Notes under the pieces: generated by a model
Database searches by the model: none
Seen by the model: the letters and a program-made list of their open reading frames with translations, nothing else
Told to the model about the DNA's origin: nothing
Made by a program: the position numbers and the translations under genes
Part shown: in pieces, positions 27,393 through 27,551 of the stretch
Layout of the letters: every line of letters begins with the position of its first letter
Position numbering within the stretch: position 1 is the stretch's first letter
NCBI GenBank assembly: GCA_040758525.1
Contig: JBFLVQ010000003.1
Location: 1 to 48,458 of the forward strand
Origin: Acidobacteriota bacterium
GTDB lineage: Bacteria; Acidobacteriota; Blastocatellia; Chloracidobacteriales; JADJPF01
Direction: 5' to 3'
Length of the DNA stretch: 48,458 nt

Positions 27393-27551
27393 AAGATTAT
27401 TCGCCCCACGCAAGTTTGAAAAGCCTATGCTATTACACTCGCGTCTACCATTCCGCCACAAAAGCCATCGCCTTTGGTGGGACTCGAACCCACAAAACCT
27501 TAAGGTTAATGTATGTACGCTTCTCAGGTATGGGCGCAGGGCAAAAATCTT
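27393..27551 (-). ncRNA. YrlA-like Y RNA 1: circularly permuted tRNA-Leu mimic
   Basis: 5'->3' on minus: variable-arm hairpin AACC-UUAA-GGUU, T arm GUGGG-UUCGAGU-CCCAC, 7-bp acceptor stem CAAAGGC/GCUUUUG closed by GAUG, U8-G9, D arm GCG-GAAUGGUAGA-CGC. Anticodon stem opens into a long terminal stem. Confidence 0.85.

Follow-up and report, generated by a model that had tools for sequence, protein, structure and literature searches.

What is the RNA encoded on the minus strand at positions 27393–27551 of the 48,458-nucleotide stretch of DNA analysed here (the window), immediately upstream of a gene first described simply as a "VWA gene"? The first-pass annotation took it for a circularly permuted tRNA-Leu mimic with the topology of YrlA. 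Few organisms have so far been found to have bacterial Ro proteins and Y RNAs. One of these RNAs, YrlA, is a stable molecule bound by the Ro protein, and its T and D loops are modified by TruB and DusA. This tRNA-like Y RNA has been described in Salmonella Typhimurium and Mycobacterium smegmatis, as well as in many other bacteria and phages (PMC4201824; bioRxiv 10.1101/312249). The reading that we favour, with a probability of roughly 85%, is that the element is a bacterial YrlA-type Y RNA encoded ~56 nt upstream, and on the same strand, of a divergent cyanobacterial Ro60/Rsr gene.

All the parts listed in the first-pass annotation were present in the minimum free energy (MFE) fold obtained with RNAfold for the minus strand (Table 1). 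The fold had an energy of −56.2 kcal/mol (z = −3.35), and only 1 of 200 shuffled sequences was equally stable. The terminal duplex P1 comprises 18 bp with one bulge, and an asymmetric internal loop, CCAUACC against AACUU, separates it from the inner stem P2. Further inward, the 6-bp helix UACAUU/AGUGUA occupies the position of an anticodon stem and, as had been proposed, is part of a long duplex instead of leading to an anticodon loop. The module that follows has the order V arm, T arm, acceptor stem closed by GAUG, and D arm, an order also claimed earlier and now upheld by the MFE fold, by the covariance-model match (95.8 bits), and by covariation. It contains neither an anticodon loop nor a free acceptor end, and it is therefore plausible that the RNA is not aminoacylated, as judged from its predicted structure.

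Table 1. Positions in the window of the RNA elements, their structural parts, and the genes of the module
Feature	Positions	Strand	Basis
Y-RNA-like unit: putative docking stem plus circularly permuted tRNA-Leu-like module	27393..27551	-	MFE fold, R1 (covariance model) match, covariation
Terminal duplex P1, 5' strand (partner 27393-27411)	27534..27551	-	MFE fold; family covariation
Internal loop, 5' side CCAUACC (opposite AACUU)	27527..27533	-	C, C, and one A invariant
Inner stem P2, 5' strand UGAGAAGC	27519..27526	-	8 bp; MFE fold, covariation
V-arm-like hairpin AACC-UUAA-GGUU	27496..27507	-	MFE fold
T arm GUGGG-UUCGAGU-CCCAC, 5-bp stem	27477..27493	-	MFE fold, Rfam YrlA alignment
Acceptor-like 7-bp stem closed by GAUG loop	27459..27476	-	MFE fold
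D arm of tRNA-Leu type: 3-bp stem, 10-nt loop with GG	27441..27456	-	MFE fold
Inner stem P2, 3' strand GCUUUUCA (partner of UGAGAAGC)	27417..27424	-	MFE fold, covariation
Conserved internal loop, 3' side AACUU	27412..27416	-	A, C, U, and U invariant in 32/32
Terminal duplex P1, 3' strand	27393..27411	-	MFE fold; covariation
Predicted divergent Ro60/Rsr-like protein, 477 aa: alpha-helical ring, then vWA domain with DxSxS...D metal site	25904..27337	-	Profile, AF2, Foldseek
p275, conserved neighbour	25067..25894	-	Co-oriented homologue in 24/90 loci
Second RNA with the same putative docking stem	24844..25048	-	R1 36.2 bits, E 8e-6 (window), 7.6e-8 (local)
p310, conserved neighbour, 278 aa from ATG at 24817	23981..24817	-	Homologue in 39/90 loci
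ThiF/E1-like adenylyltransferase domain protein, 213 aa	23329..23970	-	Pfam ThiF E 9.3e-30; homologue in 31/90 loci

Neither ARAGORN nor the Rfam tRNA model called a tRNA at 27393–27551, the sole tRNA of the window being a tRNA-Arg at 48272–48347. Nevertheless, the resemblance to tRNA was evident once the arms were put back in order. When the 32 permuted members of the family were rejoined in tRNA order, ARAGORN called a full-length tRNA in 31/32, against 0/32 for letter-shuffled sequences and 1/32 in native order. The claim of a tRNA-Leu-like D arm was also sustained: the five best matches of the D side (acceptor 5' strand plus D arm) among the 90 tRNAs called by ARAGORN in the genome were all tRNA-Leu. 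The T side showed no isoacceptor specificity in the same comparison.

The permuted tRNA genes of a red alga carry the 3' half first. The half order of our element is the same, and ARAGORN accepts its rejoined body; a permuted tRNA gene processed to a working tRNA-Leu, for example via a circular intermediate, is nonetheless hardly credible, since only 4 nt connect the two acceptor ends and there is no anticodon loop. Because this loop is missing, the "anticodons" reported for the rejoined window copy were inconsistent, being read from the junction with the scaffold; of 104 calls, 22 gave aca, 21 tac, and 13 cat.

The identity of the downstream gene bears directly on the question. Its ATG (27337) lies ~56 nt from the 3' end of the RNA on the same strand, which agrees with the position given for the "VWA gene"; what the first-pass annotation missed is that the product is a divergent Ro60/Rsr protein. 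The gene showed only a sub-threshold match to Pfam VWA_2, and no NCBIfam or PADLOC family was found. Pfam TROVE (PF05731) matched neither this protein nor anything else in the 10.3-Mb genome, and the same search does match Deinococcus radiodurans and Bacteroides thetaiotaomicron. Similarly, the window protein was not matched by Pfam vWA_Ro60 (PF25045), which did match 14 of 57 family representatives (best E 4.8e-9). A profile built from 57 diverse relatives matched human RO60 (E 2.9e-17), Xenopus Ro (E 1.3e-13), the Ro60 of Thermus phage phiLo (E 2.2e-13, with profile positions 24–393 aligned), and D. radiodurans Rsr (E 3.5e-8).

The AF2 model of the protein (pLDDT 93.5, pTM 0.85) consists of helices up to residue ~288 followed by an alpha/beta domain. 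The top 12 Foldseek matches were all Ro60/Rsr/TROVE chains (456–535 columns, TM 0.62–0.69), among them the full-length matches 9nep, 2nvo, 1yvp, and 9kop, and plain vWA domains ranked far behind; on 1yvp the model superposes with a TM of 0.66. The residues of the predicted metal site, D300, S302, S304, and D386, are invariant among the 57 representatives. By profile and by predicted fold, the "VWA gene" product is thus a divergent Ro60/Rsr-like protein that standard annotation overlooks, and, with such a neighbour, the RNA would be a Y RNA of the YrlA type lying beside its Ro gene. One criterion for YrlA in Chen et al. (PMC4201824) is a Ro60/Rsr gene no more than 4 kb away; here, the gene for the predicted Ro60-fold product is at a distance of ~56 nt. 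The survey by which YrlA was defined began from TROVE-annotated proteins (PMC4201824) and would therefore have missed this one.

The protein family is large. More than 3000 relatives were found at E up to 0.001 among 7999 candidates scored, and an exhaustive search returned 1045 representatives at 50% identity with the same E threshold. The best 120 relatives, own entry aside, are 72–80% identical to the window protein, and the named ones among them are nearly all cyanobacterial and annotated as "hypothetical" or "VWA domain-containing". A paralogous Ro-like gene (72% identity) is present in the same genome on contig C381 (locus L035). In one relative (L045; G027:C3:327795-330581), the Ro-like gene is split by an in-frame stretch of ~1.3 kb, giving an open frame of 1000 aa, which looks like an intein-like insertion.

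We took 80 loci around relatives of the Ro-like protein from named genomes; culturable strains that carry the gene include Nostoc carneum NIES-2107, Calothrix parasitica NIES-267, and Scytonema hofmanni UTEX 2349. We also built a covariance model, R1, from 31 permuted-type elements from other genomes plus the paralogous locus, leaving the window copy out. R1 matched the window element full length, at 27403–27542(−), with 95.8 bits and an E of 7.2e-18. When both strands of the 80 loci (889 kb) were searched with it, 326 matches had E values of 0.001 or less. All the 300 of these that were listed share the strand of the Ro-like gene, and the 60 matches of at least 87 bits are spread over 50 of the loci. 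Among 61 related genomes, R1 matched in 11/11 with a Ro-like gene and in 7/50 without one, the latter comprising one match of 81.9 bits in a fragmented assembly and others of 47–56 bits. A few stem elements were also seen at second loci of related genomes.

The alignment of 32 sequences supported the fold. RNAalifold predicted the terminal, inner, T, and acceptor-like stems, and in 20 of their 28 pairs both partners change while the pairing is retained. When the D stem was included, standard pairs filled 95.4% of pair cells (81.1% in shuffles), and both sides had changed in 163 cells (47.4 in shuffles); such changes were seen in 20 of the 32 pairs. None of 500 shuffles matched the observed value on any pairing measure, and slid registers were 34–52% paired. 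The acceptor-like stem was the strongest helix (both-side changes in 7/7 pairs, 100% paired). In the T stem, 3/5 pairs covary and 100% of cells are paired, and in the inner 9 bp of P1 both sides change in 8/9 pairs. The D stem is invariant within each subtype and is therefore uninformative on covariation either way. The invariant nucleotides of the internal loop between P1 and P2 (Table 1) are a candidate docking site for the Ro-like protein.

Along with L055, L063, L073a, L081, and L098, the window copy makes up a smaller subtype, which has a short V arm and a D arm like that of tRNA-Leu. Another variation concerns the hairpin before the T arm, which in 17/32 permuted members bears a 7-nt loop of the anticodon type, with CU at positions 1–2 in 17/17 and UAA at positions 5–7 in 13 of the 17. 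The CU...UAA loop context is that of t6A-modified tRNAs, and an E1-like enzyme, whose relatives include TcdA, is encoded nearby; a link between the two is speculative.

Some of the loci also contain many ordinary tRNA genes. In the same genome, an array of ~28 tRNA genes lies upstream of the C381 paralogue and its stem RNAs (L035 3700-9000), and ARAGORN called 18–41 tRNAs just upstream in 8/10 loci, namely the paralogous locus and 7/9 near relatives. Such arrays are L-arrays; in Anabaena, translation inhibitors induce them and TrcR represses them (PMC8421152, PMC10272220), chloramphenicol serving to induce the trn operon in PMC8421152. The main texts of these two papers make no mention of VWA, Ro60, Y RNA, or tRNA-like RNA. 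The likeness to the L-array setting is that the Ro-like gene and the RNAs directly follow the array, both on C381 and in those 7/9 near relatives. As a constant companion of the module, however, the array was rejected: at least five free tRNA genes within 6 kb were found in 3 of the 56 loci with at least 5 kb of upstream sequence, and the window copy has no array.

Chen et al. (PMC4201824) caution against the debris of tRNA arrays as a source of false positives, in which the T arm of one decayed tRNA precedes the D arm of the next. That our element arose in this way is very improbable, even with 18–41 tRNA calls upstream in most of the near relatives and at the paralogue, and with an Rfam YrlA model that weakly matches true tandem tRNAs too. 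Where debris would show the ends of two genes separated by a spacer, its acceptor forms a closed hairpin of 7 bp and a 4-nt loop, and all seven pairs covary; the flanking stem motif is kept in hundreds of copies, the window has no tRNA array, and the element accompanied the Ro-like gene in every one of the 11 related genomes that have it.

A further alternative is that the RNA is a cis-acting leader, the 5' UTR of the Ro-like mRNA, which would sense, for example, uncharged or damaged tRNA-binding factors and control the operon. Its place ~56 nt ahead of the start codon, on the same strand, would suit such a role. The scan for promoters found one promoter-like site, at 27830–27802(−), ~250 nt upstream of the RNA; this is the only such site, so the RNA is probably co-transcribed, as a leader would be, but the scan was not above chance (1 found, 1.2 expected). 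We consider the leader improbable, because the elements occur in 1–8 tandem copies up to several kb from the Ro-like gene, with others downstream of it, which is a poor fit, and because the Y RNAs of Salmonella are also operon-encoded, yet are free RNAs (PMC7790460). The terminator scan around the element made no call. A hairpin of 9 bp followed by a U-rich run is present at 27568–27596(−), on the immediate 5' side of the RNA; upstream of this hairpin is a 52-aa ORF without family at 27625–27783(−), and a strong terminator-like hairpin lies at ~27850–27895, after a 551-aa gene.

We return to the Y RNA, and to how closely it corresponds to YrlA as described. At relaxed thresholds, the full Rfam YrlA model (RF02553) aligned to 27415–27525(−) with 17.7 bits (E 0.63 in a 601-nt search), far below its gathering score of 69 bits; relatives of the window element reached 29–43 bits. 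The YrlA topology itself stands, since the arms and the long stem formed by the 5' and 3' ends are present and the model aligns end to end. The proposed Rsr-binding site of YrlA is the motif GNCGAAN0-1G near the 5' end (Chen et al., PMC4201824). This motif had 0 matches in 27393–27551, consistent with the earlier remark that the canonical Ro-binding motif was not seen, and was found in 3/208 family elements. A GUCGAAG is present at 27575–27581, 24 nt upstream of the RNA, within the separate 9-bp terminator-like hairpin and outside the conserved frame. With GNCGAAN0-1G absent, the binding of this RNA to the Ro-like protein would rest on adjacency and analogy. The idea that it represents a new class of Y RNA gained support from the distinct stem motif conserved in hundreds of elements. 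On its sequence features, this is a Y RNA of an unrecorded kind, although the YrlA hits of PMC4201824 include some cyanobacteria and an overlap with that list is possible.

The putative docking stem defines a large modular cyanobacterial family, always co-oriented with the Ro-like gene. A fuzzy motif for the frame detected 208 elements in 71 of the 80 loci, 1–8 per locus and with inserts of 12–259 nt, all of them upstream of the Ro-like gene and on its strand; the relatives are not independent, and these counts therefore show linkage, not statistics, and overstate the support. Of the nine element-free loci, five have less than 800 nt of upstream sequence. In the common frame, a terminal stem that ends in GCGC leads to the loop CC(U)AAC, after which come an inner stem with AAGC at its end and the junction UACAYAC; the frame resumes after the insert with GCUUU.., ACUUG, and the returning stem. 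On this constant stem are carried permuted tRNAs, ordinary tRNA-like bodies, or minimal hairpins, the latter with inserts of 12–37 nt, and tandem copies (1 to 8) lie up to several kb from the Ro-like gene.

The paralogous locus illustrates this variety. Upstream of the C381 paralogue and on its strand are three tandem stem RNAs (L035 2400-2890(-)), which have the frame in common with the window RNA. One carries a permuted T/acceptor/D module (Rfam YrlA, 40.7 bits), another an insert composed of a T arm and a long hairpin, and another a D arm, anticodon arm, and T arm in normal order, which ARAGORN calls tRNA-Lys. More stem elements were seen in the same genome at C656:477-615(+), C767 ~3378(-), and C977:2407-2481(-), on short contigs with no Ro-like gene in view. 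In several loci, a small ORF ending ...GTTTACGGCTAA/TAG is found directly 5' of the first stem RNA, for example at L035 2895-3095(-), L055 ~3940, and L081 ~4260; the 52-aa ORF of the window is not visibly related to it.

The tRNA-like inserts have a consequence for annotation. In the 80 loci (L046–L125), 81 "tRNA" calls of ARAGORN sit on stem elements, some with odd or undetermined anticodons, so that cyanobacterial annotations and tRNA counts are probably contaminated, and stem elements have probably been mis-annotated as tRNA genes in public genomes. In near relatives, some of the calls immediately 5' of the Ro-like gene have SeC, Stop, or undetermined anticodons.

A second RNA of the same family, overlooked in the first-pass annotation, is encoded 2.3 kb downstream of the first one, between p275 and p310. 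The insert, 142 nt long, does not resemble tRNA; its first 15 nt are an exact copy of part of the sarcin-ricin loop region in the 23S rRNA of the same genome. The source rRNA, on contig C38, was confirmed by a match to the LSU rRNA model (positions 2473–2925) beside a 5S gene. The 15-nt copy scored 30.2 bits, against a shuffle maximum of 24.3, and the rest of the second RNA showed no resemblance to the 3' region of the genome's 23S, the next best match (16.4 bits) falling below that maximum. On contig C38 (L129 826-2200(-)), the last 453 positions of the LSU model span 1375 nt, which suggests that ~900 nt have been inserted into the 23S gene close to its 3' domain.

The copy of the loop is not restricted to the window. 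Its core 10-mer occurs 27 times in 90 loci, always on the Ro strand and in 26 instances within the conserved stem frame, right after UACAUAC, and the whole-element pattern was found in the window and in 25 other loci. In 22 of the 24 oriented loci the Ro-like gene comes first and the element follows it, as a rule immediately ahead of p310. This element of ~200 nt is well conserved, and 13 of its 43 predicted pairs covary. In the full-text literature, "sarcin-ricin loop" was absent among the matches listed for Y RNA and Rsr.

The genes around the two RNAs recur with them to differing extents (Table 1). No Pfam family was found for p275, for which a fold search gave only vague neighbours. For p310, which directly follows the sarcin-ricin-loop RNA and whose homologues start at query residue ~33, there was no Pfam, NCBIfam, or PADLOC family; a profile search of the PDB gave nothing below E 0.36, an atlas search yielded no usable hit, and the AF2 model was poor (pLDDT 57, pTM 0.37). 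The p310 and ThiF-like genes are adjacent wherever both were seen, and the exception to co-orientation is the ThiF-like gene of two loci, which is far upstream and on the opposite strand. The PDB relatives of the ThiF-like protein are generic E1/MoeB/TcdA enzymes, with no specific subfamily reaching the cut-off. After this gene come two tandem PilZ-domain genes, at 22447–23267(−), which accompany the module in 0/90 loci. RtcB is the usual neighbour of rsr and yrlA. A linkage to RtcB was rejected here, with 0/90 loci having one and four rtcB genes located elsewhere in the genome.

For the Y RNA that we favour, the following mechanism can be proposed. The RNA is probably cut from, or co-transcribed with, an operon comprising the Ro-like gene, p275, the second RNA, p310, and the ThiF-like gene. 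By analogy with Xenopus Ro and its Y RNA and with D. radiodurans Rsr and Yrn1, the conserved stem would dock on the Ro-like ring, from which the tRNA-shaped module would protrude as a handle, recruiting a protein that recognises the shape of tRNA or competing for it. The handle of the second RNA may likewise engage a protein recognising the sarcin-ricin loop. The family would then be a modular one, in which a single docking stem is combined with different mimics of translation RNAs.

A wider reading, tentative and on the whole rather doubtful, is that of a large and so far unrecorded cyanobacterial Ro/Y-RNA system in which the constant docking stem displays, in exchangeable form, exactly those RNA features attacked by ribotoxins and anticodon nucleases, namely tRNA bodies, either permuted or of the ordinary tRNA-like form, hairpins whose loops are of the anticodon type, and the sarcin-ricin loop of 23S rRNA. 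Because the inserts copy features cut by these enzymes, the RNAs may be decoys, sensors, or repair platforms, acting with the Ro-like ring and the E1-like enzyme and often beside stress-induced tRNA arrays. Hughes et al. (PMC7790460) speculate that YrlA may compete with an anticodon nuclease, an idea that the variety of mimics makes testable. To the bacterial Ro systems, our analysis adds a Ro-like family missed by standard domain models, with putative RNA partners that have a different candidate docking motif. The modular design is the main point, as it offers a testable clue to the purpose of the Y-RNA "handle": the handles copy the shapes of tRNA and of the factor-binding loop of the ribosome.

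Compared with known systems, the window element is closest to YrlA, with which it shares the same-strand Ro60-type gene alongside, the long stem formed by the 5' and 3' ends, and a module of T arm, closed acceptor stem, and D arm without an anticodon loop. A long variable arm resembling that of class II tRNAs is also present in some YrlAs (PMC4201824; bioRxiv 10.1101/312249). Unlike YrlA, it has another conserved loop and stem motif in place of GNCGAAN0-1G, a partner protein invisible to Pfam TROVE, and no RtcB/RtcA/RtcR linkage, and its relatives, whose inserts are exchangeable, stand in tandem groups of as many as 8. Metazoan Y RNAs, as bound by Ro60 (1yvp), are made up of a stem, a conserved loop or bulge, and a variable module. 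Our family has the same three-part plan, and no sequence motifs common to metazoan Y RNAs were found in the comparisons made. In D. radiodurans, Rsr and a Y RNA form a machine with PNPase. As with YrlB of Salmonella and Yrn1 and Yrn2 of D. radiodurans, several different Y RNAs are encoded beside one Ro gene, and the minimal members of the family resemble this YrlB/Yrn type, in which the Y RNA is little more than a docking stem; the number and variety of modules are, however, far greater in the family described here.
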